A stretch of DNA of 63,938 nucleotides, filler included, from Raillietiella orientalis (GCA_036172245.1; 13 parts of 13 records of this genome joined end to end with filler, not necessarily neighbours in it); one strand, 5' to 3'; numbered from the whole stretch's first letter, positions 2,486 to 63,938 are shown. The notes: generated from the sequence alone by a model not told the origin. A program made the numbers and translations.

Positions 2486-2698
2486 TCCCTTCCCCTCCCT
2501 CCAAACTCTTTTTTGTTTTCCTTATCTTTATTTTACTTTTTGTTTTGATCCCTATCCCCCTCCACTGCCGAGGAGCGTCACGCCGGGCTGCGTCCCGGCG
2601 TCCCGGTAGGTCCGGTGTTGTGTGGCTGTTAGTGGGGCCTCGTAACACGTTTATGTAGAGTTTTTTTAATAAACGCCCCGGGCGTACCCGGGTGAGAA
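1..2698 (+). mobile_element. GC-rich L1/Tx1-type LINE, 3' part (RT, C-terminal CCHC, 3' UTR)
   Basis: RT motifs KAPG.DG, RPIT, DLHKAFD, GIRQGDSLSP, YADD and KYLG; CARCG..ESLPHLLVDC zinc knuckle; T-rich 3' UTR; ends AATAAACG-hairpin-TGAGAA at 2698. Confidence 0.93.
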
Positions 2699-3587
2699 TC
2701 CCAAATCCCGCAGGTAGGCGATGCAGGGGGAACTGGTGGCAGAACTCCTGGACCGACCGCTTAAAGCGGTCCCAGTCCTGAAGTGTCTGCATCCTGTAGC
2801 TCCGAATAAACGCGCAAAGGTGCTTTGCCGCGTCGGGAAACTTCAGCCAGTCCCCTGGCAGACGCCACGCTGACGAGAAGGGGCCCTTGTCGCGCGGACG
2901 CACTTCGAACATGATCCGACCATGGTCCGACAGCTCGGATGGTACCTTGCCGCGCCTGCCCACCCGAGAGCATAGGTGCTGATCAAGGTACACGTGATCG
3001 ATGCTGCTTTCCATGGCCGTGTCCCCGGCCAACAAGTTGCGCGTGTTCATTTCTGCGCACAACTCGTTGACGCGGTCGTTCAGTGTATCCGGCGCACCTG
3101 AAAGCATGCGCAGGTTGAAATCTCCTGCGATCAGGTGCGCTTTGCGAGCTCCTGCATCGGTCAGCCAATCGCGTCTCAGGGCAAGGTAGAATTCCCTTCT
3201 TGCCTTCGCCCTCAACGCGTTGTTTCCGCTAGGAGCGTATAGGTTGGTGAGGACCAGGTCGATAGAGTCGGACTAGCTGAGAGTCAGCTGACCGACGCGA
3301 CCTGCGTCATCGAACCGAACGTTCTTTATTGCGGTCTCGATGGCTGGCCGAAGCAGGAAGGCGACACCGCTTGATTTCGCGTTGCCGCAACGCCACAACT
3401 GCCGTCCACCCGAGATCCATTCGATCTCCAGGGCTTGATCTGCGGAGATCACGTGAATCTCCTGCAGCAGCACCAGGTCGAAGGATGCCAGGGTGGCGGC
3501 CACGTCACGTTTCTTGCCGTCGTCGCTTAGCCCGTTCACGTTCCAACAGGCGATCAGAAGACGACGTCGAGAGGCGATTTCTGGCAT
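2699..3587 (-). pseudogene. LINE ORF2 APE endonuclease domain (one in-frame stop)
   Basis: Motifs WNVNG, LLQE, NLYAP, GDFN, IDH and SDH; TGG>TAG stop at 3273-3275. Confidence 0.9.
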
Positions 3588-5029
3588 TATGGCTGGGAAA
3601 GTGGCGTCGCGGCACCTGCCGCGGGGCAGGTGTAGGACAGGTCCATCGGTAGGAGGACGGAGGCCTCTTCAGGCGCCTGGGGTACCTGTTCGGCCTCCAT
3701 CCTCACCATCACCTCCGTGTCCAAGCGTGGAATTCTCTCGGGCGACGGGTCCCGGGAGTTTCCCACGCTCATGGCACCCTCGCTACCGGAAGCCATCTCT
3801 CCCCTTCGTCGGGAGAGACGATCTTCCGGGGCATTGTGGACTTTCGTCCTGCCTTTTTGCGGGGTGCCGTGGAAACGGAGGCTGCGCTTCCGGCCTCCAC
3901 CTCGGGATCGGAAGTGGCCGACTCCTGAGGGGAAGCCAGACGCCTGACGGCCTTCTTGCCAGCCTTGGGGGCAACCGTCTGCAACGAGGCAGCCAGCTCC
4001 TCCGCGGTGCGCTCGAAGGCGACGTCTGGCGTCCGGCTTCCCCTTCCGCTGACGGACGCCGCCGCCTCGCTCCCCTCCTTGTTGACTTTGTCAACGGAGG
4101 GTTGAGCAGGGGCAGCAGCGAGTTTTTTAGCGCCGCATTCGTCGATGGTGGGAATCCGCTCTACAACGACGCAGCAGCTTTTTGTTTTTTCGCGGCGCAG
4201 AGCGGTTTCGCTCCGTTTCGCCACGTTCTTTCCCTTCTTATGGGAGATTTTCTTAGGGTCCACCTTCTGCCACCCTGGCTCTTGACCCTTGCCCTCGACC
4301 TTTTCGGCGTTTTTCGGTGGGGTCTCGAGGCTGGCCTTCGCCTTGGTGGCGCAAGTGACCTCCTTAGCAGCAGCACGAGCTACCAGCTTTTTCCTCTTTT
4401 TAGCCGCGCGCTTTCTCGCGTTTATCGCCGACACGACGCGGACTGTGTTTTGGGGGCACACCAGACGGGTGTGCCCCGCTTGTTTGCATTGCTGGCACTG
4501 CACGCTCGGACACCTCATTTTAAGGTGATTAAAGCTGCTGCAGCAGACGCAAAACTTGGGTTTCCCCACGTACCACACGTCAGCGGATTCACCGTTGACG
4601 GTGAGTTTGTGGGGAACCTCACATCCCTCGCGAACCGTCACTCGCGCTGCACCCAGGCCGCCAAGCAGCCCGTCGTAATCGACAAAAGGAGTAGGCTTTC
4701 CCCACAGCGCGTGGACGGTTGCGAATTTTTCCAATTCGTTCCGGACGGCCTACTTCGTCATCCGGAACGTGATACCGGTCAGGTGAATGATCACCGACCG
4801 GTCTTCGGTAATTGGGAGAAGCCTCCGGCTGCCCATAATTACGGGGGTTCGCAGAAGTCTCTGCGCAAGAGTTGCCTCCTTGCAGATAACTTCCACAAAT
4901 TGACCCCCGCTTCTGACGGACATAACCAGAAGCTCCTCTTTCTGTACGCCGAAAACGCGCATCGCCTGTGAGAAAGCGCGCGCGTTCTCGGGAGAATATA
5001 GACCGCCTACCTTATATAGAAGGGCTGGG
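3587..5029 (-). pseudogene. LINE ORF1 (gag-like, 2 CCHC zinc knuckles), disrupted
   Basis: CVCCSSFNHLKMRC and CQQCKQAGHTRLVC knuckles and a K-rich tail; stop at 4750 and a frameshift near 3790. Confidence 0.85.
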
Positions 5030-5345
5030 TACAAGGCCAAGGCCGAGCGCCACGTCTGGCAGTCAGGAGCAGCTTGTCTGCTCGACGACCTGGGCCTGGA
5101 GTGCTCGGGCGCGGCCAAAGTTCGCCGACTCCTAAAGCGCTACTACTCCTCGTTGTATGCTAGGGAGCCCACGGAACGCCGTCTCTCGGAGCTGCTCCTG
5201 CAGGCGGATTCCCCAGCGGTCGACGAGGACGAACGCACTACACTTGACTTGCCCTTCACGGCGGAAGGAATGTCTTCCGCCATAGCGGGCCTCAAGAAGT
5301 GTTAAGCGACAGGTGAGGATGGTCTGCCTGTGGAGTTCTTCCAGT
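5030..5345 (+). pseudogene. LINE ORF2 fragment (EN-RT linker to RT start)
   Basis: Translates YKAKAERHVWQSGAACLLDD...YYSSLYA...GEDGLPVEFFQ, homologous to other ORF2 copies in the window. Confidence 0.85.
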
Positions 5346-5445
5346 NNNNNNNNNNNNNNNNNNNNNNNNNNNNNNNNNNNNNNNNNNNNTTAATTAATTA
5401 ANNNNNNNNNNNNNNNNNNNNNNNNNNNNNNNNNNNNNNNNNNNN
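5346..5445. other. Artificial contig linker N44-TTAATTAATTAA-N44 (first of 12)
   Basis: The same 100-nt six-frame-stop linker occurs at 5346-5445, 10735-10834, 16117-16216, 21494-21593, 26683-26782, 31745-31844, 36790-36889, 41808-41907, 46799-46898, 51771-51870, 56717-56816 and 61598-61697. Complete contig lengths fall monotonically from 5289 to 4781 bp, so neighbouring contigs are not biologically adjacent. Confidence 0.98.
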
Positions 5446-8400
5446 TGCCATGGAAGCATGTGTATCGAGGACATGGAGGGAATGGTTGATTGTCAAAATT
5501 TCCTAGAAAATACTGTGAATCGGTACTTATTACAATCTTTGTGAATTTCAGCAAAAAAATGTTTTTCGCATATCAGCTGTATGCAGAGCTTTGTGAAGAC
5601 AACGGCGACACTCCCTCCCTCAAAAGGAATGTAACCTCACCGAACCTCGCTTGCTTACTTAAGTTTAAACTTTATCATCGTCCAGCAGCTTGCTGAGACA
5701 GCTCGATTTTCGGATATTCTTGATTCAATGATTCCAATAAGATGTAAGCACACATCTGCCACAAGTCCTGCTAGCCAAACGGAAATAGGAACGATGTCAT
5801 GGTGCCAATCTAGTTAAATACAAGCAACAAAAAGCGGTTTCTTCTCCTGGTTTTCAATGATAGAAATTGTTTTCAAGAGGCATGGGCATTCGACCGCTCT
5901 TTGTTTCCAAATAACGTCCAGTCTGTTGCTGCTCCATATGTGCCATTGATATCAATAGCTGCTTCGCAAAATGAGATCAATGACACACTGTATCTGTTTG
6001 TGTGCTAAAAGTAACTTGGGTCTCAGTGCCATCCATTGAAAGAAAGGTGGGGAAAAATATTCCCGTTTATTGTAATGTCAAAGTCATCCGCATTCTGATA
6101 AAACGAAGCACGCATTTTTGAAATGCACATAAACTTGTTCGATTTCCTTCAACAGTTTCTGGTCACCACAAATTTTACGATGAACTTTACATCAACACTT
6201 CTCGAATTGCGTACATAGAATTCAAGTTGATTGGAATCTTATTTCTTCCTCAGCGTGCGCGAGAAATCAAAAAGCGTTATTCAAGTGTGCCAACAGAGTT
6301 TTCTCATAACAACAGTTATTAGTGGCGTTTAGCAGTCACTATGTTTAAGAATCACGTAGCATTTTGCGTTCCACGCAACTAATCCAATTTTGTTATCGTG
6401 TGCCTAGATGAATCCCATCGGAGAGTGAGGGTATTGGAAATCTGCAGAGTTTTCACCGAAAACGTCCTTTAGTTCGTTGTGTTTTGTTTCTGTGAATAAA
6501 TTCCGCAAACGAAGGAATGGAGAATCCACATTGGCATTTTTTTTCCTTTCCATGGAAACGATTCTCTGCAGAAAATAGTTACAAATTTGTCAAACAAAAA
6601 CATTACTGGTGTGTGTCGTCATTCTAAACTTAACAAGATCGTTGTGCAGCAGAGATTCGTAGTCTTGAGCTCCTATCAGCTTATCACAAATGCACTTAGC
6701 CACAAATGGTACGAACGGCATTTCAAGAAACTTGTAATTTGAAGTGACTTGGATTGCTTCGTTTGGTTGCAAGTAAGACGTGGTTCTCCAGCTAGCTGAG
6801 AGAGCAATCTGTTTTGATATTCTGCATTCGAGGTTCTAAAGAGCAGCAAACCAGATTGCAAACATCCACCTTGCGACCTGATCATCATTAAGAGTCACTG
6901 CAAGGTACGATTGAGCTCCTGACACACATGCATGTATTTATTTCCTTTGCATCTGAGGAAGCGGATTGTGGAGTGACAGTATCAACAGATCGCAGCGTTT
7001 TCAGATTCGTTGCAGTCGTTGAAACCTTGAATTGACTGTGTTCTATCACTTTCAAAAAGTTGACTAAAGGAAGAAGTCGCTATACACATGGTTTCTGCAA
7101 TAATTTGCATGCCAACGACTGTGGTTACAATGATAGGTAAAAAGGGATTTAAGGCAAACTTTCCATTTTAGAAATGTGACAAGTAGTAATCTCCAGTTTT
7201 CTGGTTGTAAGCAGCAATCATTTATAACAAGAAACTTAAGAGGAAATCCACGTATCGACTTCGGGAACACACTGAACTTTTCGAAGATTCTAACGGGAAA
7301 GGTTTTCCGTTTGCTCCAATTGAACTACAATAGGTTGTGCGCTTGCATCTCCATCAGGGTGACGAATATTTGAATGAGCGCCATGGAAATTTGTAACAAA
7401 ATTTGTTAACAAGCAACCTGCGACTGCAATGCAGTTCGCAGCAATTCTGCATGCCAAGTGTCTACACTTGAGTGTTTGAAACCAAAGAACCGAAGTACTA
7501 CTATTGTGCATGCATGGAAAGGAATAGAAATTAATTATGTCAGCACTCATCTCGCTACCACAATATTAGCAGTCGGCGGGAACTATAGTTCTCTGTTCGT
7601 GCTCATAACATGGTCCAATAATGTGAAGAAATAATGAGTCCTCTTGGTTCATTGACTGTTGCGTCACATTTTTTACTTTTCCCCTTGGTGCACATCCACG
7701 TTATTACATAGGGTTCAAACAGGTGTCAAACAATCAACCTTCCTGTTTCGCCTTCAAATCGCATTTCTGATTGCAAGAAATTCGTACTTACGCTGCTTGG
7801 GGGGCATCCTGCGCATTTCTCGTAGATACATTTAGGTTTTCTAACAATTTCCGACACACAGTGACCACTACATCTGTGAACAAATGGTCATAAAGAAAGT
7901 AATAAACGGACACATCACCCCTCGACATTGATCAAAAGAATAACTGAACTTGTGTGCAATTGGAACCAATTTGTCAGCATCAAATTTTTAGATTTGATGC
8001 AAATTCTGTTAGAAAGTGTTGCAAAGTATTGCTAAGTTCTCGAATCACTAGATCGTCGGAAGTTCCTCGCAACTACAACAACGTATGTAGTTGGTTCATC
8101 TGCCATGGAAGCATGTGTAACGAGGACATGGAGGGAATGGTTGATTGTCAAAATTTCCTAGGAAATACTGTGAATCGGTACTTATTACAATCTTTGTGAA
8201 TTTCAGCAAAGAAATCTTTTTCGCATATCAGCTGTATGCTGAGCTTTGTGAAGACAACGGCGACACTCCCTCACTCAAAAGGAATGTAACCTCACCGAAC
8301 CTAGCTTGCTTACTTAAGTTTAAACTTTATCATGGTCCAGCAGCTTGCTGAGACAGCTCGATTATCAAAGGTTCTTGATTCCATGACTCCAATAAGATGT

Positions 8401-10734
8401 AAGCACACATATGCCACAAGTCCTGCTAGCCGAACGGAAATAGGAACGATGTCATGGTGCCAATCTAGTTAAATACAAGCAACAAAAAGCGGTTTCTTCT
8501 CCTGGTTTTCAATGATAGAAATTGTTTTGAGGAGGCATGGGCATTCGACAGCTCTTTGGTTCCAAATTCCGTCCAGTCTGTTGCTGCTCCATATGTGCCA
8601 TTGATATCAATAGCTGCTTCGCAAAATGAGATCAATGACAAACTGTATTTTTTTGTGTGCTAAAAGTAACCTGGGTCTCAGTGCCATCCAATGAAAGAAA
8701 GGTGGGGAAAAATATTCCCGTTTATTGTAATTTCAAAGTCATCCGCATTCTGATAAAATGAAGCATGCATTTTTGAAATGCACATAAACTTGTTCGATTT
8801 CTTTCAACAGTTTCTGGTCACCACAAATTTTACGAAGAACTTTACATCAACACTTCTCGAATTGCGTACATAGAATTCAAGTTGATTGGTATCTTATTTC
8901 TTCCTCAGCGTGCGCGAGAATCCAAAAAGCGTTATTCAAGTGTGCCAACAGAGTCTCCTCATAACAACAGTTATTAGTGGCGTTTGGCAGTCACTATGTT
9001 TGGGAATCACGTAGCATTTTGCGTTCCACGCAAGTAATCCAATTTTGTTATCCTGTGCCTAGATGGACCCCATCGGAGAGTAAGGGTATTGGAAATCTGC
9101 AGAGTTTCCACCGAAAACGTCCTTTAGTTCGTTGAGTTTTGTTTCTGTGAATAAATTCCACAAACGATGGAATGGATAATCCACATTGGCATTTTTTTTC
9201 CTTTCCATGGAAACTATTCTTTGCAGAAAATAGTTACAAATTTGTCAGACAAAAACACTACTGGTGTGTGTCGTCATTCTAAACTTGACAAAATCGTTGT
9301 GCAGCAGAGATTCGTAGTCTTGAGCTCCTATCAGCTTATCGCAAATGCACTTAGCCACAAATGGTACGAACTGCATTTCACAAAACTTGTAATTTGAACT
9401 GACTTGGATTGCTTCGTTTGGTTGCAAGTAAGACGTGGTTCCCCAGCTAGCTGAGAGAGCAATCTGTTTTGATATTCTGCATTCGAGGTTCCAATGAGCA
9501 GCAAAACAGTTTGCAAACATTCACCTTGCGACCTGATCATGATTAAGAGTCACTGCAGGGTACGATTGAGCTCCTGACACACATGCATGTATTTATTTCC
9601 TTTGAATCTGAGGAAGCGGTTTGTGGAGAGACAGTATCAACAGATCGCAGCGTTTTCAGATTCGTTGCAGTCGTTGAAACCTTGAATTGACTGTGTTCTA
9701 TCACTTTAAAAAGTTGACTAAAGGAAGAAGTCGCTATACACATGGTTTTTGCATTAATTTGCATGCCAACGACTGTGGTTTCAATGATAGGTGAAAGGGG
9801 ATTTAAGGCTAACTTTCCATTATAGAAATGTGACAATTAGTAATCACCAGTTTTCTGGTTGTAAGCATGAATCATTTATAACACGAAACCTGGGAGGAAA
9901 TCCACGTATCGACTTCGGGAACACACTGAACTTTTCGAAGATTCTAACGGGAAAGGTTTTCCGTTTGCTCCAATTGAACTCCAATAGGTTGTGCGCTTGC
10001 ATCTCCATCAGGGTGACGAATATTTGAATAAGCGCCATGGAAATTTGTAACAAAATTTGTTAACAAGCAACCTGCGACTGCATTGCAGTTTGCAGGAATT
10101 CTCCATGCCACGTGTCTACACTTGAGTGTTTGAAACCAAAGAACCGAAGTACTACTATTGTGCATGCATCGAAAGGAATAGAAATTAATTATGTCAGCAC
10201 CCAGCTTGCTACCACATTATTAGCAGTCGGCGGGAACCACAGTTCTCTGTTCGTGCTCATAACATGGTCCAATAATGTGAAGAAATAAAGAGTTCTCTTG
10301 GTTCATTGACTGTTGCGTCACATTTTTTACTTTTCCCCTTGGTGCACATCCACGTTATTACATAGGGTTCACACAGGTGTCAAACAATCAACCTACCTGT
10401 TTCGCCTTCAAATCGCATTTCTGATTGCAAGAAATTCGTACTTACGCTGCTTGGGGAGCATCCTGCGCATTTCTCGTAGATACATTTAGGTTTTCTAACA
10501 ATTTCCGACACACAGTGACCACTACATCTGTGAACAAATGGTCATAAAGAAAGTAATAAACGGACACATCACCCCTGGACATTGATCAAAAGAATAACTG
10601 AACTTGTGTGCAATTGGAACCAATTTGTCAGCATCAAATTTTTAGATTTGATGCAAATTCTGTTAGAAAGTGTTGCAAAGTATTGCTAAGTTCTCGAATC
10701 ACTAGATCGTCGGAAGTTCCTCGCAACTACAACA
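5446..10734. repeat. ~2655-bp tandem repeat, two copies
   Basis: TGCCATGGAAGCATGTGTA starts at 5446 and 8101; paired ORFs are offset by 2655 or 2654 bp (5490/8145, 7954/10608). AT-rich, with no recognisable product. Confidence 0.95.
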
Positions 10735-10834: not shown

Positions 10835-13800
10835 GGTCAAAATTTACAACTTTTGTGAGTTGTAATCAATTGCAAATCAGTACATTTCACCATTGCACTT
10901 TTGCTCTTTCTCGCGAAGCATCCATTTGCAGTGAGCTGCAAATTCACGGAATGGAGCCGCACATCATTCCAATTTCTTGGTTTCAGAGGATGACTAAGAG
11001 GATTCCTACATTTCATTATGGTGGGGCACTTTTGACTCTGCGCTGTTTTCACGGCAAGCAGCGTTGGAATTAGAAAGCGAGTGTTTTCCTTCGATGTGAT
11101 CCATTATGTGGTCAAAATTTACAACTTCTGTGAGTTGTAATCAATTGCAAATCAGGACATTTCACCATTGCACTTTTGCGCTTTCTGGCGAAGCATCCAT
11201 TTGCAGTGAGCTGCAAATTCACGGAATGGAGCCGCACATCATTCCAATTTCTTGGTATCAGAGGATGACTAAGTGGATTCCTACATTTCATTATGGTGGG
11301 GCATTCTTGACTCTGCGCTGTTTGCATGGCAACCAGCGTCGGAATTTGAAAGCGAGTGTTTTCCTTCGATGTGATTCATTATGTGGTCAAGATTTACAAC
11401 TTTTTTGAGTTGTAATCAATTCCAAATCAGTACATTTAACCATTGCACTTTTGCTCTTTCTCGCGAAGCATCCATTTGCAGTGAGCTGCAAATTCACGGA
11501 ATGGAGCCGCACATCATTCCAATTTCTTGGTTTCAGAGGATGACTAAGAGGATTCCTACATTTCATTATGATGGGGCACTTTTGACTCTGCGCTGTTTTC
11601 ATGGCAACCAGCGTCGGAATTAGAAAGCGAGTGTTTTCCTTCGATGTGATTCATTATGTGGTCAAGATTTACAACTTTTTTGAGTTGTAATCAATTCCAA
11701 ATCAGTACATTTCACCATTGCACTTTTGCTCTTTCTCGCGAAGCATCCATTTGCAGTGAGCTGCAAATTCACGGAGTATAGCCGAACATCATTCCAGTAT
11801 CTTGGTTTCAGAGGATGACTAAGGGGATTCCTACATTTAATTATGGTGGGGCACTTTTGACTCTGCGCTGTTTTCACGGCAAGCAGCGTTCGAATTAGAA
11901 AGCGAGTGTTTTCCTTCGATGTGATCCATTATGTGGTGAAAATTTAAAACTTTTGTGAGTTGTAATCAATTGCAAATCAGGACATTTCACCATTGCACTT
12001 TTGCGCTTTCTCGCGAAGCATCCATTTGCAGTGAGCTGCAAATTCACGGAATGGAGCCGCACATCATTCCAATTTCTTGGTTTAAAGGATGACTAAGAGG
12101 ATTCCAACATTTCATTATGGTGGGGCACTTTTGACTCTGCGCTGTTTTCATGGCAACCAGAGTCGGAATTTGAAAGCGAGTGTTTTCCTTCGATGTGATT
12201 CATTATGTGGTCAAGATTTACAACTTTAGTGAGTTGTAATCAACTGCAAATCAGGACATTTCACCATTGCACTTTTGCTCTTTCTCGCGAAGCATCCATT
12301 TGCAGTGAGCTGCAAATTCACGGAGTATAGCCGAACATCATTCCAACTTCTTGGTTTCAGAGGATGACTAAGGGGATTCCTACATTTAATTATGGTGGGG
12401 CACTTTTGACTCTGCGCTGTTTCCATGGCAAGCAGCATTGGAATTAAAAGGCGAGTGTTTTCCTTCGATGTGATCGTTTATGTGGTCAAAATTTACAACT
12501 TTTGTGAGTTGTAATCAATTGCAAATCAGGACATTTCACCATTGCACTTTTGCGCTTTCTGGCGAAGCATCCATTTGCGGTGAGCTGCAAATTCACGGAA
12601 TGGAGCCGCACATCATTCCAATTTCTTGGTTTCAGAGGATGACTAAGGGGATTCCTACATTTCATTATGGTGGGGCACTTTTGACTCTGCGCTGTTTTCA
12701 CGGCAAGCAGCGTTTGAATTAGAAAGCGAGTGTTTTCCTTCGATGTGATCCATTATGTGGTCAAAATTTACAACTTCTGTGAGTTGTAATCAATTGCAAA
12801 TCAGGACATTTCACCATTGCACTTTTGCGCTTTCTGGCGAAGCATCCATTTGCAGTGAGCTGCAAATTCAAGGAATGGAGCCTCACATCATTCCAATTTC
12901 TTGGTATCAGAGGATGACTAAGTGGATTCCTACATTTCATTATGGTGGGGCATTCTTGACTCTGCGCTGTTTGCAAGGCAACCAGCGTTTGAATTTGAAA
13001 GCGAGTGTTTTCCTTCGATGTGATTCATTATGTCGTCAAGATTTACAACTTTTTTGAGTTGTAATCAATTCCAAATCAGTACATTTAACCATTGCACTTT
13101 TGCTCTTTCTCGCGAAGCATCCATTTGCAGTGAGCTGCAAATTCACGGAATGGAGCCGCACATCATTCCAATTTCTTGGTTTCAGAGGATGACTAAGGGG
13201 ATTCCTACATTTCATTATGGTGGGGCACTTTTGACTCTGCGCTGTTTTCACGGCAAGCAGCGTTTGAATTAGAAAGCGAGTGTTTTCCTTCGATGTGATC
13301 CATTATGTGGTAAAAATTTACAACTTCTGTGAGTTGTAATCAATTGCAAATCAGGACATTTCACCATTGCACTTTTGCGCTTTCTGGCGAAGCATCCATT
13401 TGCAGTGAGCTGCAAATTCACGGAGTATAGCCGAACATCATTCCAATTTCTTGGTTTCAGAGGATGACTAAGGGGATTCCTACATTTAATTATGGTGGGG
13501 CACTTTTGACTCTGCGCTGTTTCCATGGCAAGCAGCGTTGGAATTAGAAGGCGAGTGTTTTCCTTCGATGTGATCGATTATGTGGTCAAAATTTACAACT
13601 TTTGTGAGTTGTAATCAATTGCAAATCAGGACATTTCACCATTGCACTTTTGCGCTTTCTGGCGAAGCATCCATTTGCAGTGAGCTGCAAATTCACGGAA
13701 TGGAGCCGCACATCATTCCAATTTCTTGGTTTCAGAGGATGACTAAGGGGATTCCTACATTTAATTATGGTGGGGCACTTTTGACTCTGCGCTGTTTCCA

Positions 13801-22954: not shown

Positions 22955-22958
22955 ACAA

Positions 22959-30814: not shown

Positions 30815-30908
30815 TGCTGCTTGATCGACCACCACCACACACGAAGCCTACACCTAGGGACGGTTCCCGGCACGAGGAGCACCGAGGAAACACGTCCGCT
30901 CTAGCCGA

Positions 30909-41200: not shown

Positions 41201-41690
41201 AGTCATGCAACCATTGGAAGGAAACCCTCAATATACACAATATTGAAAATCAGGTGGTATACGCAACCACGCATAGATCGTGGTTGCCACCGGAAGTCAA
41301 GGATACAACCTTTCTCTTCTTTCAGAACGGTCTAAGATGCAGGGCAAGATGCACCACTGGGACACGTCGCAGGCAACCCAGCCTACGTGCAACCAATGCG
41401 GGGAAAAAGAAACTACCGCTCATCTCTTCGAACGCAAACACAATGAACCGAAATGGCACACCGTGCAAAAAGTACTCCAGTTACCAGTAGAACCGGCGCG
41501 ACATACCATTCGGAGGCTCTGTACTTCGGTAAACGGTGCTCCTGTCCTGAATCCACTGCAGAGGTTCTTTATATGCACCTACATCGAAGCAACAATGCGG
41601 AAATGGCACCGCATCCACCAAGGAAGAACAGCATCTGCAATCAACATTGCAGTTGGCCTGGTGTTAAGAGAGAGGGCGATAAGACAATGA
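38293..41690 (+). CDS. LINE ORF2 polyprotein (APE endonuclease, RT, zinc knuckle); single frameshift near 41348
   Basis: 1065-aa ORF 38293-41490 with NING, LTET, AYGP, GDLN, IDH, SDH, APGPDG, WRPIS, DLSKAFD, GVRQGD, YADD and YLG. The C-terminus HHW..CNQCGEKETTAHLFE continues in ORF 41280-41690. Confidence 0.93.
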
Positions 41691-41922
41691 AAGAATATCC
41701 CCATTGCGGTAATAAGCAAACTTATGGACCGATTACGCGAGCATAGACTGATGTAATAACAGAACTAAAATAAACTTCCCTCACCGCAATTGCGGACTGA
41801 GGGCCCTNNNNNNNNNNNNNNNNNNNNNNNNNNNNNNNNNNNNNNNNNNNNTTAATTAATTAANNNNNNNNNNNNNNNNNNNNNNNNNNNNNNNNNNNNN
41901 NNNNNNNGATGCTTTGCGCGCT

Positions 41923-45556: not shown

Positions 45557-45567
45557 ACGGTCGCGTA

Positions 45568-51125: not shown

Positions 51126-51770
51126 TCACTGCAGGTTCGGGGTGAGCTCTCGCTCCTTCGCGGCCTGCGCTGCGCGCCTCAGGGCCTTAGCCCGTCGCGC
51201 TACGGCTTCCGCGCGTGTGATCCGACGTGCGTCGGTGATCTCAGACTCCGTTTGGGAGTCCGATTGAAGCACAGGCGCTTCGCAACTCACCTGCTCTGTC
51301 GGTTTGGAGGTGCTTGCGAATGAGACCGCGGACACTTCCTTTTTCGCGATCACCTGAACATCGTCCATGGCGATCGCAACTTTCGCGCCATTCGCGACCG
51401 CGGCGGTAGCCTTTGCAGCGGCAGAGGGAACCTTCGCGCGAGTCTCCTGCATCGCGCTACTGTTTTTTACCTTGGAGAGGCGCTTGCAGTTAGGTTGCGG
51501 AGAATTTTTGGGAGATTTTATTGTTCTTTCTTTCACCGCAACCGTCCACCCACCGTCCGTTCGTTCGAAGCGCTCCTCGACTTTCGTGAGGGACGCCATC
51601 GAACGTTCCTGCCCAACCGCCTAGGGCGCAGCTTTCGCTGCACCCTTAAAAAGCGGCGGAAACGCGGCCTCCGCGGCAGCCGGGAGATTGCTCCTCTCCT
51701 TTTGAGTCGGCAAACTTGCTTCGCGGCTCAAAGTATTGTGCGCTCGACAAAGTAATCAGTTAATTGTGCT
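51126..51770 (-). pseudogene. Probable ORF1 C-terminal fragment of another LINE
   Basis: K/A/S-rich ORF 51126-51599 with GGWTVAVK and DSQTESE, resembling other ORF1 tails; no diagnostic motif. Confidence 0.5.
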
Positions 51771-54800: not shown

Positions 54801-56716
54801 TTTGTAATTAGTTCGGCTCTCTTATGATTTCTTCTCGTGGAGCAAGGGATTCGGAGGATGTCGGGATGTGAGAAAGGTGCATTTGCATCCAAAGGAGAAG
54901 GAAACCGTTCGTATGCACGGAAGGAGCGCAACGATCGAATCCACATCATAGAAAATGATTTGAAATCACCAAACCTATCAAATTTGCACCGAAAAAAGGA
55001 AGATGGAGGGAAAAAAACTTGATCCATTCATTGCAAAAATGGTTGCCATGAAAACCAGACTAAGTCCAATCCTCCCCTTTTCAAATTAGTTCGGCTCTCT
55101 TATGATTTCTTCTCGTGGAGCAAGGGATTCGGAGGATGTCGGGATGTGAGAAAGGTGCATTTGCATCCAAAGGAGAAGGAATCCGTTCGGATGCACGGAA
55201 GGAGACCTACGATCGAATCCACATCATAGAAAATGATTTGAAATCACCAAACCCCTCAAATTTGCACCGAAAAAAGGAAGATGGAGGGAAAAAAACTTGA
55301 TCTGTGCATTGCAAAAATGGTTGCCATGAAAACCAGACCAAGACCAATCCTCCCTTTTTGAAATCAGTTCGGTTCTCTTATGATTTCTTCTCGTGGAGCA
55401 AGGGATTCGGAGGAAGTCGGGATGTGAGAAAGGTGCATTTGCATCCAAAGGGGAAGAAATCCGTTCGGATGCACGGAAGGAGCGCATCGATAGAATCGAC
55501 ATCATAGAAAATGATTTGAAATCCTCAAACACTGCAAATTTGCGCTGAAAAAAGGAAGATGGAGGGAGAAAGAGTTGATCTGTGCATTGTAAAAATGGTT
55601 ACCATGAAAACCAGACTAAGTCCAATCCTCCCCTTTTCAAATTAGTTCGGCTCTCTTATGATTTCTTCTCGTGGAGCAAGGGATTCGGAGGATGTCGGGA
55701 TGTGAGAAAGGTGCATTTGCATCCAAAGGAGAAGGAAACCGTTCGTATGCTCGGAAGGAGCGCAACGATCGAATCCACATCATAGAAAATGATTTGAAAT
55801 CACCAAACCTATCAAATTTGCACCGAAAAAAGGAAGATGGAGGGAAAAAAACTTGATCCATTCATTGCAAAAATGGTTGCCATGAAAACCAGACTAAGTC
55901 CAATCCTCCCCTTTTCAAATTAGTTCGGCTCTCTTATGATTTCTTCTCGTGGAGCAAGGGATTCGGAGGAAGTCGGGATGTGAGAAAGGTGCATTTGCAT
56001 CCAAAGGGGAAGAAATCCGTTCGGATGCACGGAAGGAGACCTACGATGGAATCCACATCATAGAAAATGATTTGAAATCCTCAAACACTGCAAATTTGCA
56101 CTGAAAAAAGGAAGATGAAGGGAGAAAGAGTTGATCTGTGCATTGTAAAAATGGTTACCATGAAAACCAGACTAAGTCCAATCCTCCCCTTTTCAAATTA
56201 GTTCGGCTCTCTTGTGATTTCTTCTCGTGGAGCAAGGGACTCGGAGGAAGTCGGGATGTGAGAAAGGTGCATTTGCATCCAAAGGGGAAGAAATCCGTTC
56301 GGATGCACGGAAGGAGCGCATCGATGGAATCGCCATCATAGAAAATGATTTGAAATCCATCAACACTGCAAATTTGCACTGAAAAAAGGAAGATGGAGGG
56401 AGAAAGAGTTGATCTGTGCATTGCAAAAATGGTTGCCATGAAAACCAGACTAAGTCCAATCCTCCCCTTTTCAAATTAGTTCGGCTCTCTTATGATTTCT
56501 TCTCGTGGAGCAAGGGATTCGGAGGATGTCGGGATGTGAGAAAGGTGCATTTGGATCCAAAGGAGAAGGAAACCGTTCGTATGCACGGAAGGAGCGCAAC
56601 GATCGAATCCACATCATAGAAAATGATTTGAAATCACCAAACCTATCAAATTTGCACCGAAAAAAGGAAGATGGAGGGAAAAAAACTTGATCTGTGCATT
56701 GCAAAAATGGTTGCCA
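51871..56716. repeat. Second 278-bp satellite array (~17 monomers), distant relative of the other two
   Basis: 278-bp period (51969, 52247, 52525 and onward); shares TGGTTRCCATGAAAAC and weaker collinear blocks with 16217-21493. Confidence 0.97.
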
Positions 56717-56816: not shown

Positions 56817-58512
56817 TGGGAACGTCACCTGTTTCGTTAAGCTCAGCCGCGAAATTTGATAAAACTCCGCGGGCAGGCCGCGGATTTGGGCAGGTGCCGA
56901 GTGCTCCTGGCCCTGATCGTCCAGTAAGCTGGCCGATCCGGACTGTTAGGCTTGCCTCTCGGCTCCCGCTTTGTATTCCGCCAGCCTGCGGATGTCGGGG
57001 GTCCTGGCGTAACGACGGGCCTGCAGATAGGCTCGTTCGTTACGGACCCCGGTCCCAAAACCCGTAGGTAGGCGGTGCAGAGGGCACTGGTCGCAGAACT
57101 CCTGGACCGACCGCTTGAAGCGGTCCCAATCCTGGAGTGTCCGCAGCCTGAAGCACCGTATGAACGTGCCGAGATGTTCCGCCGCGTCCGGGAGCTTCAG
57201 CCAGTCCCCTGGGAGACGCCACGCTGAAGAGGGGGGGCCCCTGTCGCGCGGATGGATCTCAAGGACTAGCGGGCGATGGTCGGACAGCTCGCACGGTAAC
57301 TTGCCGCGCCTGCCCTCGCGAGGGCACAGGTGCTCGTCAAGAAACACGTGGTCAATGCTGTCTTCCATCCCCGGTGCACTGGCCAACAAATTACAGGTGT
57401 GCACCGCCATGCACACCTCGTTGACCAGGTCATGCTCGGGATTCTGCCCATCTGGTTTCAGGCGAACGTTGAAATCGCCTGCAACCAGATGGGCATTCCG
57501 CACGCCTGCTTCGGTCAGCCAGTCTCGCCGGAGGGCAAGGAAAAACTCTTTCCTCGCCCTTCTGTTCATCAGGTCCTTGCCGCTCGGTGCGTACACGTTC
57601 ATGACGATCAGATCGATCGAGTCGGACCACGTGAGAGTCAGCTGGCCGACACGACCGTGATCGTCGAACCGCACGCCCCGAGCCGCGGCCTCGACGGCTG
57701 GCCGAAGCAGGTAGGCGACACCGCAACTTTTCGCTCTCGCACACCTGTACCATAGCCGCCATTTGGAGATCCGTTCGATCTCTTGCGCTTGTGCTGCAGA
57801 GATCACGTGGATCTCCTGCAGCAGCGCAAGGTCGTAGGACTCCAGAAGGGCGGATATGTCTCGTCTTTTGCCGGCGTCTGTCATGCCGTTCACGTTCCAA
57901 AAGGCGATGCGCTGACGACGGCGGGAGGAGATTCCCGGCATTACTGCTGGGAAGATTAAGGTGCGGGGGAGCCCTCCTCTTGCGAGGCGGGCGGGATGTC
58001 CATGGGGGTTTCGGCCTTCTCAGGCACCTGAGGCACCTGTTCGGCCTCCACCCCCTCCATCTCCTCCGTGTCCGCGCGTGGGAGTCTCTCGGGCGACGGG
58101 TCCCGAGAGTTTCCCACGCTCATGGCACCCTCGCTTGCGGAAGCCATCTCTTCCCCTTCGACGGGGAGACGAGCTTCCATGGCTTTGTGGACTTACGTCC
58201 AGCCTTCTGGCGCGGTGCCGTGGAAACGGAGGCTGCGCTTCCGACCTCCACCTCGGGGTCGGAAGTGGAGGACTCCTGAGGGGAGGCCGGACGCCTTACG
58301 GCCTTCTTGCCAGCCTTGGAGGGTTCTCGCTGCAACGAGGCTGCCAGCTGCTCCGCGGCTCGCGCAAAGGCTACGTTATCGATGGTGGTGTCGATGACGG
58401 ACGCCGCCGCCGGCTCGCTCCCCTCGCTGTTGACAGAGTCAACAGAGGGGTTGTCGTCGGTAGCAGCGAGTTCTTTTTCGCAGCGGTCGGGAATACGTTC
58501 GACGACGACGCT
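56817..58512 (-). mobile_element. GC-rich LINE fragment: ORF1 C-terminus + ORF2 endonuclease
   Basis: Starts at SVVVER; TAATG at 57943-57939; ORF 56946-57941 has a complete EN motif set; internal deletions near 56836 and 56880. Confidence 0.9.
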
Positions 58513-58596
58513 CGCACGGACGTGTACTGTGTTGCTCCTCGAGCGTGATTCCTGTCCGTCTTTTTGTGTGTGGTGGGCCCGAGTGCGTCCACTGGG

Positions 58597-60540
58597 ATGT
58601 CCACGGAACCCCTGCAGCAAAAGATGGATGTGGAGGCTGCTACTGGCAGTGGAGACTCTTCTCCACTTGTCCGGTCCGCCTCTGATTCTTGTGTCTCGCC
58701 ACCGGCGAGAAGCTTCGCCGCCGTCGTCAAGGCGGCGGCAGCCAACGGAGCACCGCCCGACGAAGCAGAGCTGCAGGCATATGCAGCCCATGGCTACAAG
58801 CCTGCGCTCTGCTATCCGGTGAGTGCTTCTATCTCCGACGGGGTCGGAGAAAATTTGTGGGACGAGCTTTTGCGCGTCGGGGTCCTTCAGGACGACCTCC
58901 TGGCCGTCATGCCGGTTAACGCGCTCGGACACTGGGAGGTGCACTGCGAAGAGGCATCCCTAGTCCAGCGCCTTCTCCGCACCCCGCTAAATATCCGCGG
59001 GAAGGAGGTCGTCCCGTCGGCCATGGACCAGTCGTTCGTGGTCCGATTATCCGCCGTCCAGGTGGACACGCCCGATCGCGTGCTCGTCGCTGCACTAAGT
59101 GCATTCGCCACGGTGCACGCGCTGTGGAGAGCAGAAAATCCGATCAAAAGGATTGCATCTTTCTACAGCGGACTTGCCATGGCGCGTGTCACCATGGTGG
59201 ATAGGAGGCAAATGCCTCCGCACTTGCAGGTGGGCGATGCGATCATCCACCTTAAATTTGCCGGTCAGCGACCGGCTTGCGGCATTTGCGGTGCAGAGGG
59301 CCACCGTGCGTGGACGTGCCCTTCACGCAACTGCCGCTATTCTAAACACCTCGGTTACTCCATCAAAGAGTGCGCCGAGCTGAAGAGAAAGCGGCAGGCG
59401 AAAAGCCGCCAACATTCGACCCCGTCCGCGCCGAAAAGATCACCCGTTGTGCCACGGGAGAAATCTGGCGCGAAGGGCGGGGCATCTTCGAGTGGAGCTC
59501 CCGCGAAAAAGGACGCGGTTGCTTCAGGGAAGCCACCATCCCAGACAACCGCGCAGACGGGAAAGATGCCACGTCGCCCTGGGGGCAAATCGCCCCCTTC
59601 GAAGCAGCCTAAGAGTGCGGGCACGCACTCAATCAAGGCAGCTGAACCGTCCGCGTCCGCTTGCGCGTCCAGAGGAGCACACGGGAAACCGTGCGCGGGT
59701 ACCCCCGGAGCTGCCTCTGAACGGCAGTCTCCTCCTACGGCGGTGGAGATCACGTCTTCCACGCCGAAGGTACGAGCAGCGAAGGCTGCAATAGCGCCTC
59801 GCGGGACGACGGCAATGACCGGCGTTTCGCCCGCATCGGCTAAGGAGCAGGTGCAGTGCGTAACGGGGACGGAGCCGTCTCCCGCCGCGAGCGCGAAACC
59901 TGAGCTCGCATCTCCGGCCAAACAATTGAGGGAGGCGTCGGCCTCCCAGGAGGGCGTCCCCGACGCGGGCTGGACTCGAGTCTCCAGGATGCCCACAAAG
60001 GGGAAGAAGAAGGTTGACCCTTCAATATTCCCCATCCTTAAGGTGGGTGGGAGGCAAAAGAGAAGCACGCCTAAGAAGGTGCGTACCCAGGTACGCACTA
60101 CGGCTGCGTGCTCTGTCTCCGTCGCTTCGCGCGAGACGGCGGCTGCGGAAGCCAAAGCTCCGGAAGCTGCGTTGGCGACTGCGACGACCCCCGCGCGGGC
60201 AGGGCAAGCCTCCACCTGCCGAAACAAAAAGAGCCTGGCAAAACGCCAGTCTCGCGCCAGGCACTCGGATTCCGAGATGGAGTCCGAGTGCAAACAAATG
60301 GAGCGCGCATCCCGGGGTAAGCCGGTAGCGCGCCGGGCTAAAGTGCGAAAGCACGAGCCTGTTGCCGGAGGCGGTTCCGGCTCCTGCACGGAGACCGAGG
60401 CGATGATCCTCGGCTCCCAGGACTCAGCTGGGCGCGATGTGGCGGCGAACGGGAGCGATTCCGCTTCCCAATCCGCTCTCCTACCAGCTGACTTCTCGCC
60501 GGACGGGGCGAGGAGCACGCCGTCATGTCCGCAGCAGTGA
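58597..60540 (+). CDS. LINE ORF1 protein (zinc knuckles, long low-complexity tail)
   Basis: Open frame from ATG 58597; CGICGAEGHRAWTC plus a degenerate second knuckle. Confidence 0.88.
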   Translation: MSTEPLQQKMDVEAATGSGDSSPLVRSASDSCVSPPARSFAAVVKAAAANGAPPDEAELQAYAAHGYKPALCYPVSASISDGVGENLWDELLRVGVLQDDLLAVMPVNALGHWEVHCEEASLVQRLLRTPLNIRGKEVVPSAMDQSFVVRLSAVQVDTPDRVLVAALSAFATVHALWRAENPIKRIASFYSGLAMARVTMVDRRQMPPHLQVGDAIIHLKFAGQRPACGICGAEGHRAWTCPSRNCRYSKHLGYSIKECAELKRKRQAKSRQHSTPSAPKRSPVVPREKSGAKGGASSSGAPAKKDAVASGKPPSQTTAQTGKMPRRPGGKSPPSKQPKSAGTHSIKAAEPSASACASRGAHGKPCAGTPGAASERQSPPTAVEITSSTPKVRAAKAAIAPRGTTAMTGVSPASAKEQVQCVTGTEPSPAASAKPELASPAKQLREASASQEGVPDAGWTRVSRMPTKGKKKVDPSIFPILKVGGRQKRSTPKKVRTQVRTTAACSVSVASRETAAAEAKAPEAALATATTPARAGQASTCRNKKSLAKRQSRARHSDSEMESECKQMERASRGKPVARRAKVRKHEPVAGGGSGSCTETEAMILGSQDSAGRDVAANGSDSASQSALLPADFSPDGARSTPSCPQQ

Positions 60541-61597
60541 TGCGTGGACTCGCGTCCGCTCGTCGCGTCAGCGTGGCCTGTTGGAATGTCAACGGGCTAC
60601 GTGATGCTGACAAAAGGCGGACGGTAGCCAACGCTTTGCGCGCGTTCGATCTGGTGCTGCTGCATGAGATACATAGCATCTCCGAACGGCAGCCATCGGA
60701 TCTGGAAGAGCGCGCGGGCGGAACGCTACACTGGCGGCAAGGCTCCGCGCACACGTGCGGAGTCGCGTTCCTCGTGCGAGGCAGGGTGGCGGAGGCGGTG
60801 CGGAACGTTTGTTTCGACGAGGAAGGTCGTGTGGGCCAACTTGTCCTCAAGTGGTCTGAATCGATCGACATGGTCGTTACGAATATCTACGCGCCGAGCG
60901 GCGGCCGGCATTACGCCCAGCGACTTGCATTCCTGGGTGGCCTGCGCAGCCGCTGGCTCGCTGACTCCGGCCCTAACGTGGCGCACCTCCTTGCAGGAGA
61001 CTTCAACGTCCACCTGCTAACAGAGGAGAGATGCCGCTTGAGGGAGAAGCAACTGGTGAGCGAGGTATGCGCGTCCGTGCGCGTGCAAAACTTGCTTGCT
61101 GGTGAGCCCGGGATGGAGAGATCGACGGACCATGCGTTCCTCGATGAACACCTGCTCTCACGAGTAGGTCGGAGAGGGCGTCTGCTGTCCGCGATTTCGG
61201 ATCATCCTAGACTGGAGTTCGAGCTCCTCCCGCCTAGCAAAGGGCGTCCGATGAACGTCTGGAGGTTGCCGGCCGACTGGCTTAGCAATTCGGAGGCGGC
61301 GGAGCATCTCCGCCAACACCTCCTGGGCTTCGCCATCTGTGAACTCGAGGAATGGGACGATCTGAAAAGATCGGTCCGCGAGTTCTGCTGCCGGTTCCCC
61401 TTGCACCTGCTTCCCCGCGGCTTCGGGGAGGGTGTCGCGAACAGCAGATCCTATCTGCAGGCGCGTACCTTTTCACGATGCCCGGACGTCCGGCGTCTGG
61501 CGGAGTATAAGGCCAGGGCCGAGCGCCAGGATTGGCAGTCTGGAGCGGCTTGTCTGCTCGAAGACGCTGGCCAGGAATGCTCGGCTGCAGCCGAAGT
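60540..61597 (+). CDS. LINE ORF2, APE endonuclease domain (partial, runs off contig)
   Basis: WNVNG, LLHE, NIYAP, GDFN, TDH and SDH; linker WDDLKRSVREFC..LPRGFG. Confidence 0.9.
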
Positions 61598-61708
61598 NNN
61601 NNNNNNNNNNNNNNNNNNNNNNNNNNNNNNNNNNNNNNNNNTTAATTAATTAANNNNNNNNNNNNNNNNNNNNNNNNNNNNNNNNNNNNNNNNNNNNGAA
61701 GTTGATAG

Positions 61709-63938
61709 TTGCCACCCGGTCACGCCGGGGCGTTTATTAAAAATTCTCTTTGATTCGTGGTACGAGGCCCAACTACGGCCAACTCAACTGGACCTGCCGG
61801 GTCGCCGGTACGCAGACCGGCGCGACTGTCCTCGGCAGCGGAAGGGGGTATGGGAAAAAACAAGAAGAAAAATAAAATATAAAAACAAAAAGATTTGGGA
61901 GGGTTGGGGAAGGATCACTGACCACTGGGAGGAGGGTCCATCCTTCCCAGGATGACCTTGAGGTCCGTCCGTATAATCCCCAGGTGGGGCCATCTGGTCA
62001 CAATCCGCTGGTAGCGGACTGCAAGTACGACGGCATCCCTGTCGTGATTCGGTCTTCCGACGTTGCTCCAGCACGTCACAATCCCGCGGACGCAGCAAAG
62101 TGAAGCCAGGGCAGCGGCTGGACGCAGGGCATCATGCACGAACAGAAGTCGAAAAACGTCTCTGGGCTGGCTGCCCTCCTGGATCCGTAGGGAGGCACGA
62201 AGACGTTCCCACAGGGGTCGGAGGGCAGCACAATCAACAAGGAGGTGGGGGAGAGTTTCCCGTTCCCCACACCTGATGCAAGTAGGATCTACTCGACCCC
62301 TGGTCCAGTGGTGGCGCCGTGCGTTGCAGGGTAGACCCCAATGCAACATCAGAAGCGCCGACTCCTGCCACTTCAGGGGGAGGATCCTAGATCCCATTGA
62401 TACCGGGGGCCACTTCAGGTCATCCGGCTGGATGCCGAGTAGCTCGCCCCATCTCTGCAGTCCTGTCGGCTGGACACTAGGGGTACTGGCGTCCGCCAGT
62501 TCACCCGTGGACCAGCCGCTGATCAACTTCTCCTTGCCTGCGATGCGGCAGGAGACTTGCCACCTAGGCTTGCGGCTGCTGGAGAGCGCCCTCCTCAGGA
62601 AGGGCATCGCCGTAGCTAGGGGGGTTGTCTCTGCCCACGTGCTTCTCGCGGGACCCTGGAGTATCTTCCGCAGAGTGCAGCGGGAATAGGCGCCGCGTCG
62701 CAGGCAGTTCCATATTTCTTCATTTTTTTCATTACTCTTCGCCAACGTGCCAGCTGTCTCCTCCAGTCATGCGGAGGAGTTGGCGGGGCTGCATACCATC
62801 CAGCTGTTTTCCTTCGCCAGAGTTGCCATGCGTCCCAGGAGAAGTCCGCATCTCTTGATCTTCTTGCCACGGCAGAGAAGATAGGACGCGAGACCCTCCG
62901 TCCCGGATACACGGCTGACAAGGAGTCGGGCCGGAACGCACCAAGAAGTGCTCCATAACTTCGCTGCGATGGCGAGGGTTCGCCACCGCAGCTGAATCTC
63001 TACTCGCTCCATCGTCAAGAGGCCGAGACCGCCATCCTGACGTGGAGCACACAAGTCCTTCAACGGGACTCGGGGTTTTCCTCTTTTCCAAAGGGCAATT
63101 CTCAGGAGGTCCTTTGTCTGTTTTTTCAACTCTCTGGGGACGGGGCAAACAAATAGCAGGGGGCGGGGGATAGGAGCCGCGAACGCGTTCCATACCGCGG
63201 CCCGTTCCGGAAGGAGAAACTTGTCTTCCAGGAACGGGCCGATCGCCGTTTCAACTTTTTTGAGGCAGCCGGACCACGCTTCCGCAGGGGAATAGTCCCC
63301 CAACGGCACACCAAGGTACTTCAAGCACCTCGCCGTGGGGATCCCCAAGCGGACCCAGTCCTGCTGCCCAGCCCACGCCGCACCGACTGGAACCACCGTC
63401 GACTTCGCCCTGTTCACAGTAAGTCTGGTCCCGCGGCTAAGCAGTTCGAAGAAATTCCCGACCGCCTTCGCCGGCGTGGACATCGGCAACAGAAGCAAAG
63501 GATCGTCGGCGTATGCTGCAACGGCGGGCGTGCCGGGGCACGAGCTCGGCAAGGGGGCCAAAGTCACCCTGTACACTCTCAGCACTAACACAGAGTAGGT
63601 GCTAAAGAGCAGGGGACTGAGGCTGTCGCCCTGCCGTATGCCTCGCCGTACCGGCACGCCATACGCCATTTGACCTCTGAAAGAGATATTGATCAGCGCG
63701 CTGCGCCAGCAAGAGCGCAGGTAGGTCAGTAGGTAGGGAGGGAAGCCCATGCATCTCAGGAGCTCTAGCGGGAGATCCTGGTCCACGCAGTCGAACGCTT
63801 TATGCAGATCGATTGCGATCGCTAGGGCTCCCTTCCCCACCTGGGAGTCCTGTCAATGCCCGGCTGACGCCCCCAAAGCGGGGCTGCCAATCCTTCTCTC
63901 TTCCTTTTCTTTACTACTCTGCACATAAAACCATGAAC
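61709..63938 (-). mobile_element. GC-rich LINE, 3' part (RT to 3' end)
   Basis: ORFs 62767-63840 (DLHKAFD, GIRQGD, YADD) and 61915-62745 (CIRCGERETLPHLLVDC); AATAAACG-hairpin end at 61738-61709. Confidence 0.93.

Follow-up and report, generated by a model that had tools for sequence, protein, structure and literature searches.

Recurrent, mostly antisense nesting of L1-like LINEs at defined sites in the coding sequence of their relatives

The 63,938-base stretch of Raillietiella orientalis DNA analysed here (GCA_036172245.1; hereafter the window) joins 13 contigs, eight of which, rich in GC, consist of fragments of diverged L1-like long interspersed elements (LINEs) with an element length of about 5.6 kb. 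We found that these elements are interrupted by one another, that the LINE-into-LINE junctions are real, and that they recur at the same sites of the element beyond chance. In our judgement they probably result from sequence-specific and lineage-specific target-primed reverse transcription (TPRT), by which L1-like LINEs integrated into the coding sequence of their relatives, mostly in antisense and mostly at full length. The eight contigs (c1, 1-5345; c5, 21594-26682; c6, 26783-31744; c7, 31845-36789; c9, 41908-46798; c10, 46899-51770; c12, 56817-61597; c13, 61698-63938) sum to 37,126 bases with 57-63% GC and carry reverse transcriptase (RT) and apurinic/apyrimidinic endonuclease (APE) domains on both strands. 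All of their stretches could be placed on one element coordinate with the use of two separate references, the c6 fragment 26783-30908 (minus strand; reference A, positions A1-A4126) and c1 5-2698, while hosts were placed by blastn, tblastx and motif scans.

The initial annotation had listed 15 element/element junctions, 11 of them on four sites, and our own mapping recovered both counts. Each of the 15 joins an element end to internal sequence, being marked by a break in between-contig similarity as well as by a visible element terminus, and no further junction was detected in the eight contigs when they were mapped on the element coordinate. Six of the ends are three-prime and nine five-prime; eight of the latter are of full length and carry GGACGTG (GAACGTG in c5), and the ninth, at 5030, is truncated at about element position 366, as judged from a 93%-identical copy in c7. 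The most frequent target is the KAFD motif of RT motif A, with three distinct five-prime and two three-prime junctions (22958, 25066, 30908, 33929, 41922), followed by LPxGFG between APE and RT (2698 and 48509, both three-prime), DAKLI in RT (36275, 61709) and CSVVV in open reading frame (ORF) 1 (43113, 58515). The remaining junctions are found at single sites, i.e., 5030 (~A2777), 33003 (~A2603) and 45560 (~A3131), or could not be placed (51125). All six three-prime junctions, whose position is set by the first nick, fall on the four recurrent sites. The common register claimed for diverged hosts was borne out, as same-type junctions agree to within 0-3 nt, with true 3′ boundaries lying 1-3 nt away from the numbers first given (e.g., 25068/25069). 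The positional clustering was compared with a uniform model, a check proposed together with the annotation and run here on the junctions of the window: 11 of the 14 placed junctions lie less than 20 bp from another, which was reached in 1 of 200,000 simulations (P ~5e-6). A conservative count, in which 5′ and 3′ junctions of one site were merged unless shown to be separate, leaves 10 events, five of them clustered (P = 0.002). The proposed antisense rule held in part: it is obeyed by 14/15 junctions (P = 5e-4), but counted per site only by 7/8 (P = 0.035), with 51125 possibly lying on the same strand. Copies of each motif are frequently occupied, namely 5/10 for KAFD, 2/6 for DAKLI, 2/7 for LPxGFG and 2/4 for CSVVV.

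Junctions of this kind might be ascribed to assembly chimeras, template switching or twin priming, and the contigs are indeed short (~5 kb) and consist of repeats, and two of them begin only 11-14 nt outside an element end. Yet misjoins would be expected within shared sequence of the same orientation and not where an exact terminus meets an antisense internal site, and the junction types recur in diverged sequence on separate contigs, not in identical words. In twin priming, both of the points joined are internal to one element, and template switching could give five-prime junctions but could not account for three-prime junctions that share a motif with them and overlap by 11-15 bp. We therefore hold artefacts of this sort to be very improbable.

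The arrangement at KAFD is best seen in c5, where the 5′ part of an insert (21594-22957, minus; reference 5-1363), 92% identical to the c6 insert and assigned, like it, to a group that we call lineage X, adjoins with its 5′ end the RKAFD of H5. The latter (22958-25068, plus) is itself a lineage-X element, preserved from KAFD to the 3′ end and 88.8% identical to the RT of the c6 insert; it is a host at its KAFD and an insert at its 3′ end, where its tail TTGAAAA abuts a second host (25069-26682, minus; element ~1917-3513) that ends at KA(C)D and of which an uninterrupted version was found elsewhere (see below). In c6, the lineage-X insert that serves as reference A (26783-30908, minus) extends from the 5′ end through ORF1, APE and RT, with frameshifts, and lies in a host (30909-31744, plus; RT from RKAFD on) that is only 72% identical to the host in c5. 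A chain of insertions is present in c7: H7b (33004-33929, plus), a host fragment from A2603 to KAFD, stands between two antisense inserts, the element 5′ part E7a (31845-33003, minus), whose 5′ end adjoins the host at ~A2603, and the lineage-X element E7c (33930-36275, minus), which is preserved between DAKLI (A3257) and its 3′ end and is 83.8% identical to the c6 insert. E7c thus interrupts its host at KAFD and is itself interrupted at DAKLI by the 5′ part of a further element, E7d (36276-36789, plus). In c9, 14 nt of host (41908-41922, minus), corresponding to the RKA.. of KAFD in antisense and matching the site of the second c5 host at 11/11 nt, precede a lineage-X-like 5′ part (41923-43112, plus; 74% identical to the c6 insert).

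This c9 insert is cut at CSV(I)V by a divergent, long-branch element (43113-45559, minus) that extends from its 3′ end back to ~A3131; being an insert at CSVVV, the latter is a host at A3131 for the 5′ part of another divergent element (45560-46798, plus), the ORF1 of which is 48-53% identical to ORF1 of the c12 insert. The second CSVVV junction is that of c12, in which a host 83% identical to the c6 insert (56817-58514, minus; A1237-2888) starts at (C)SVVV and is interrupted by the least decayed copy of the group (58515-61597, plus), with its 5′ end, an open 663-aa ORF1 frame and an open APE frame. As for LPxGFG, the c1 insert A1 (1-2698, plus; reference 2929-5622) is preserved from RT (RVT_1, E 5.9e-20) to the 3′ end with its AATAAACG hairpin, and that end adjoins the LPxGFG of the antisense host H1 (2699-5030, minus; element ~366-2696), which retains the APE domain, is cut at LPxGFG by A1 and has its own 5′ end truncated at 5030. 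H1 is 93% identical to c7 31845-32715, and the c7 copy continues to the full 5′ end. The truncated H1 is hosted in turn by a fragment of the ORF2 APE-RT linker from ~A2777 on (5031-5345, plus), recognised by tblastx to c6, c5, c7 and c12 and by blastp. The other LPxGFG insert (c10, 46899-48509, plus; reference 4006 to 3′ end) adjoins the LPPGFG of an antisense host (48510-51125, minus) that comprises the full 5′ part, with its 5′ end at 51125, down to this motif. In c13, an insert preserved from RT to the 3′ end (61710-63938, minus) adjoins DAKLI, of which only 11-12 nt of host, (A)KLI, are present (61698-61709, plus).

We determined whether same-site junctions share a common history by comparing 540 nt of the insert side and 540 nt of the host side in three same-type pairs. 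Identities were 91.5% for inserts against 72.0% for hosts at the KAFD 5′ junctions of c5 and c6, 80.4% against 68.2% at the KAFD 3′ junctions of c5 and c7, and 79.1% against 67.3% at the LPxGFG 3′ junctions of c1 and c10. Since the insert sides are the more alike in 3/3 pairs, these junctions stem from separate insertions that hit different host lineages, not from the copying of a single composite, and at KAFD and LPxGFG independent insertions at the same base and in one orientation are found, as in target-specific LINEs. It could be argued that a few ancient nests, one event per site, were later amplified as whole blocks, through segmental or tandem duplication in heterochromatin, or were inherited as composites. 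Alignments do pass through junctions (2478 nt between c1 and c10, 1915 nt between c5 and c6, 3020 nt between c5 and c7), many copies are decayed, at CSVVV, and likewise at DAKLI, a single event could have produced both the 5′ junction and the 3′ junction, and the satellite arrays of the window point to a repeat-rich source. A neutral block would nevertheless diverge equally on both sides of a junction, and here identity is higher by 12-19 points for inserts than for hosts; moreover, the c5 host resembles the c6 insert at 88.8% identity but the c6 host at only 72%, the halves of the presumed target-site duplications differ among copies (e.g., at 4/14 positions at CSVVV), and a LINE with its RT motif A split by a 5.6-kb insert would be unable to spread alone. 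Multiplication of blocks is, in view of this, unlikely.

At KAFD at least, the inserts are the nearest relatives of the c6 element. Among eight five-prime parts, the c6 insert has its best matches in the two other KAFD elements (91.4% and 74.0% over ~1240 nt), the next best reaching 64.9% over 579 nt. Likewise, among the six elements covering at least 550 nt of the RT region, the KAFD pair is the closest to the c6 insert (88.8% and 83.8%, compared with 78.8-68.9% for the others), and when the six 3′ parts are placed in a tree, the two KAFD elements form a 100/100 clade. All five KAFD junctions thus go back to a single lineage, X. The CSVVV pair combines the most divergent 3′ part (c9) with the most divergent 5′ part (c12), and although these parts do not overlap, they fit an origin of both junctions from one further lineage. 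The view of the initial annotation that sister families partition the motifs among themselves is, accordingly, upheld for lineage X and KAFD (5/5), but the elements are few and the motifs LPxGFG and DAKLI are not separated in the tree. That insertion disables competitors is not shown: lineage X hits its own kind as well, H5 being cut at KAFD. Nothing here shows selection for hitting rivals, and partition combined with competition stands as a hypothesis.

In the initial annotation, 5′ junctions just upstream and 3′ junctions just downstream of each motif had been taken to fit target-site duplications (TSDs) of ~15 bp, and we found a corresponding overlap of registers: at KAFD, DAKLI and CSVVV, host sequence adjoining a 5′ end begins 11-15 bp ahead of the point at which host sequence adjoining a 3′ end stops, as TSDs of this length would predict. 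The overlap amounts to 14 bp at KAFD (where the duplication would be CGTAAAGCATTCGA-like), ~14 at DAKLI and 11-13 at CSVVV. In the antisense cases the insert 3′ end always follows the upstream part of the host, and therefore the sense strand of the host is the primer of complementary DNA (cDNA) synthesis. Inspection by eye revealed no microhomology between the 3′ tail of the RNA and the nicked target.

The nick at KAFD could be located with the help of a public, otherwise unrelated run (X1), which contains 12% of the sampled c5 words. None of its 82 short contigs (90-99% likeness to c5) bridges 22958 or 25066; the bins 22784-22953 and 24824-24993 are uncovered in the run, which makes this result uninformative. 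A 393-nt contig (record 6), however, represents the c5 host lineage without the insert and is uninterrupted exactly at 25068/25069, its 18 loose letters before 25069 being the in-frame continuation of RT after KAFD. This empty site fixes the bond between ..GCATGCGA and C, with the insert tail reading ..TTGAAAA, and places the KAFD nick directly after ..AARGCWTKCGA. The last six bases, WTKCGA, are present at 63 sites in the 37,126 bases, yet the lineage-X junctions all lie at KAFD, and the last eight, GCWTKCGA, occur 11 times, six of them at KAFD. As the five other occurrences are empty, recognition should span roughly at least nine bases or depend on further context. One lineage-X copy, in c6 (27395-27409), reads KAFE, with GAG at the nick base. 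The alanine codon of KAFD is GCG in 0/5 hit copies and in 3/5 unhit ones, numbers too few to test, and the idea that GCG versus GCA is an immunity change was dropped for this reason; together, such codon and KAFE variants might hint at escape of the target.

The targets had been described as conserved DNA that is hard to mutate away. In a pile-up on the reference (depth 7 at KAFD and 4 at CSVVV) this description suits KAFD and CSVVV, at the 86th and 98th percentiles of nucleotide conservation, but not LPxGFG and DAKLI, both at about the 21st. This has a bearing on another explanation, according to which integration was aimed at a region (LINE-rich or centromere-like chromatin, as thought for Zepp-like clusters) with a loose endonuclease preference, the sharp sites arising from small numbers or from a bias of the assembler toward high-copy junctions. 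Such targeting would suit the low conservation of these two motifs, the looseness of the LPxGFG target, flanks that are all LINE and the 4/9 five-prime junctions at single sites; in addition, repeats make up the assembly's largest contigs, and only multi-copy structures may have assembled. It sits poorly with a register that is identical at base resolution in diverged hosts, with the P values for uniform placement given above, with 6/6 three-prime junctions, the ends made by the first nick, on the four sites, and with the fact that 63 WTKCGA sites were available and the lineage-X junctions are all at KAFD. We consider regional targeting of this kind decidedly unlikely.

Several observations weigh against sequence-specific, lineage-specific integration as the full account. 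The data base is 37 kb of short contigs, and the TSD halves come from different copies, as no insertion has both flanks within a 5-kb contig. The four single-site or unplaced junctions (A2603, A2777, A3131 and 51125) make up 4/9 of the five-prime ends. At LPxGFG, the two targets have 12/19 bases in common, which is loose for a strict reader of sequence, and no motif common to the four nick sites was seen, which calls for several specificities. In the tree, the DAKLI element joins the two LPxGFG elements in a single clade that is an unresolved trichotomy. The hosts at 41922 and 61709 amount to 14 and 11 nt, since the contigs start there. Most of the insertion events are old, because many copies carry frameshifts, DNA divergence among the GC-rich copies being 8-35%. 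Finally, the claim that every flank is LINE or LINE-like stands clearly for 14/15 junctions, with flanks of the same LINE group, and much less so for 51125: the region beyond it (51126-51770) is barely LINE-like, with a weak match to the low-complexity C-terminal tail of the c12 ORF1 (tblastx E 6.6e-6; 14/27 identities by blastp) on the insert's own strand, and this junction may be an exception to the antisense rule.

Two further observations concern the ends of inserts. Contigs c9 (41908) and c13 (61698) start 14 and 11 nt outside the element end, just past the shared target site, which is the pattern expected if the assembler breaks where many hosts diverge behind one insert family. The 5′ junctions of H1 in c1 (~A2777) and of E7a in c7 (~A2603), 93% identical to each other, straddle LPxGFG (A2696), and they could be imprecise joins, through target deletion or long duplication, of an LPxGFG-targeting family.

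The architecture of the elements is that of APE-type (L1-like) LINEs, with an N-terminal APE endonuclease in ORF2 and RT downstream. A short variable leader at the 5′ end is followed by GGACGTG and by a long ORF1, in which a zf-CCHC knuckle remains below threshold (13.6 bits; cut-off 20.8). ORF2 encodes the APE domain, then RT, then a weak zf-RVT match (21.6 bits; cut-off 27.5); a C-terminal zf-RVT region and a CCHC knuckle in ORF1 are features of plant-type L1, and here both score below their cut-offs. Exo_endo_phos exceeds the cut-off in four GC-rich frames (top hits 56949-58019, E 2e-12, and 60492-61598, E 7.5e-12) and RVT_1 in five (e.g., 3-1337, E 5.9e-20; 44751-45512, E 7e-23). The closest solved structure to the APE domain is the human L1 endonuclease (E 5.6e-6), and the solved-structure matches comprised only L1 endonucleases and cellular APE/ExoIII proteins, with no R1 or TRAS endonuclease among them. 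In all six 3′ ends, AATAAACG is unchanged and comes with a 6-bp hairpin and a 5-7 nt TGAnAA-like tail without poly(A); the hairpin is conserved, with compensatory changes in 2/6 pairs, and a conserved stem-loop without poly(A) is characteristic of stringent-type LINEs. Long conserved antisense frames are common in the GC-rich elements (e.g., 3457-4968, 504 aa), and the host ORF2 frames 47629-48966 and 2391-3272 (both minus) stay open across junctions 48509 and 2698, continuing for ~293 and ~100 codons, respectively, along the antisense strand of the insert. Such frames may reflect codon bias only.

Under sequence-specific TPRT, the GC-rich contigs would be pieces of LINE-only islands built by several related L1-like lineages. 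The endonuclease, or another part of ORF2, would read roughly nine or more bases and nick the host sense strand just after the motif, cDNA synthesis would begin at the hairpin tail, and the second strand would be cut 11-15 bp upstream, giving rise to TSDs. Lineage X would be specific for KAFD, the divergent lineage for CSVVV and a third clade for LPxGFG and DAKLI. Each insertion would find a safe haven in multicopy, dispensable DNA and at the same time break the ORF of a relative, own lineage included. A more far-reaching scheme, which we offer tentatively and regard as rather doubtful, is that of a guild of sister LINE lineages, each with its own endonuclease specificity for a different site in the shared coding sequence and always inserting in antisense, by which a harmless landing would be combined with the knockout of a rival or sibling. 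Such a system would be self-limiting and hyperparasitic, would form LINE-only, possibly centromere-like islands beside satellites, and might drive an arms race in which targets diversify, e.g., through synonymous or nearly synonymous substitutions where the nick falls.

Site-specific LINEs are natural models for programmable, RNA-templated gene insertion, and self-nesting LINEs such as Zepp are candidate centromere DNA in algae. Several related APE-type LINEs that apparently recognise distinct targets, of about 10 bases or longer, would offer a natural series of endonuclease specificities for comparison. If the arrangement is confirmed genome-wide, both the way in which target specificity diversifies within one LINE group and transposon competition by direct insertional killing become testable.

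The group is scarcely represented in public data. Among 1.84 billion representatives we found only P0035 (619 aa, 69% identical), with an uninterrupted RT and intact DAKLL and KAFD motifs, and a 132-aa fragment (70%), all others being at most 38% identical. The named homologues are L1-like proteins of Closterium and land plants (24-27% identity), and none named from Chlorella, Coccomyxa or Chlamydomonas was among the homologues found by protein searches. A metagenome scan with the RT alignment yielded no family member but three distant loci (23-36% identity), and a scan of the genome collection yielded none. Two candidates were rejected. L004, the only match of the 3′-end DNA pattern in genome contigs, is a chance hit to a bacterial phosphoenolpyruvate carboxykinase-like gene with its terminator, and no RT relative was detected in the genome concerned; P0161 (1555 aa, eight matched stretches) is an artefact-like gene model of tandem partial RTs from an unrelated LINE (~29% identical).

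The contigs of the window stand in order of size, the longest first (from 5345 down to 4781 bases, with c13 cut at 2241), and are separated by N44-TTAATTAATTAA-N44 spacers. Outside the GC-rich group, three contigs are satellite arrays (c3, 10835-16116; c4, 16222-21485; c11, 51873-56716) with a 275-278 bp unit in 17-19 copies and 92-94% matches, those of c3 and c4 being ~74% alike and of opposite orientation. Contig c2 (5446-10734) consists of a 2.65-kb unit repeated at 95.9%. These satellites and the c2 repeat have ~40-43% GC, compared with ~60% in the LINE islands. The remaining contig, c8 (36890-41807), holds a full-length, seemingly intact LINE of another family, AT-richer (44% GC) and without any nesting junction seen. 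Matches to RRM and CCHC in its ORF1 frame (37151-38293) remain sub-threshold, and its ORF2 (38260-41487, 1076 aa), which encodes APE and RT, is only ~29% identical to the GC-rich group.

In the searched literature (full text; most subscription journals lie outside its coverage) we found no description of antisense LINE insertion at defined coding motifs of relatives, nor of such insertion at full length. The available portions of two preprints (10.1101/2025.03.28.645958; 10.1101/2025.11.06.686955) add nothing on LINEs nesting antisense in relatives. The R1, R2 and TRAS elements are described as having a sequence-reading endonuclease and as occupying a single fixed position, in a single orientation, within a multicopy target (PMC1919474), but their targets are rDNA or telomeric repeats, whereas here LINE coding sequence is hit. 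Tx1-clade families, which according to the excerpts available target Tx1D, Mariner-N4_AMi (Tx1-Mar), Harbinger (Tx1-9_AMi), small nuclear RNA genes or microsatellites (PMC4494074), resemble our elements in being APE-type LINEs with a fixed position in another transposon family and in that related families differ in target. Compared by description, they differ in being directed at DNA transposons, small RNA genes and microsatellites and not at the LINE coding sequence of relatives.

Self-nesting is shared with Zepp and Cnl1. Zepp and ZeppL of the green algae Chlorella, Coccomyxa and Chlamydomonas are presented, in the parts of the sources at hand, as L1-type LINEs that nest into existing copies and build LINE-rich clusters (PMC8226300; PMC9940879), in tandem arrays mostly of 3′ ends with frequent 5′ truncation (PMC8226300). 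Nesting into LINEs of the same group is a shared trait, seen here for 14/15 flanks. In contrast to same-orientation arrays of 5′-truncated copies, however, 14/15 junctions of the window are antisense and 8/9 five-prime ends are of full length, one of nine being truncated, the 3′ ends are without poly(A), and several diverged lineages use different, defined coding motifs; for Zepp, this comparison is one with published descriptions only. Cnl1, a Cryptococcus retrotransposon without long terminal repeats (non-LTR), is likewise portrayed in the available text as inserting preferentially within itself and forming nested, tandem, subtelomeric arrays of mostly 5′-truncated copies (PMC9942834). It shares self-nesting with our elements, but its arrangement is in tandem, whereas in the window several lineages insert in antisense (14/15) at several coding sites. 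Self-nesting LINEs are thus already known from Zepp and Cnl1, and what distinguishes the elements described here both from these and from the known target-specific LINEs, which they resemble in their mode of action, is the orientation of the insertions, the type of site and the number of lineages that take part.

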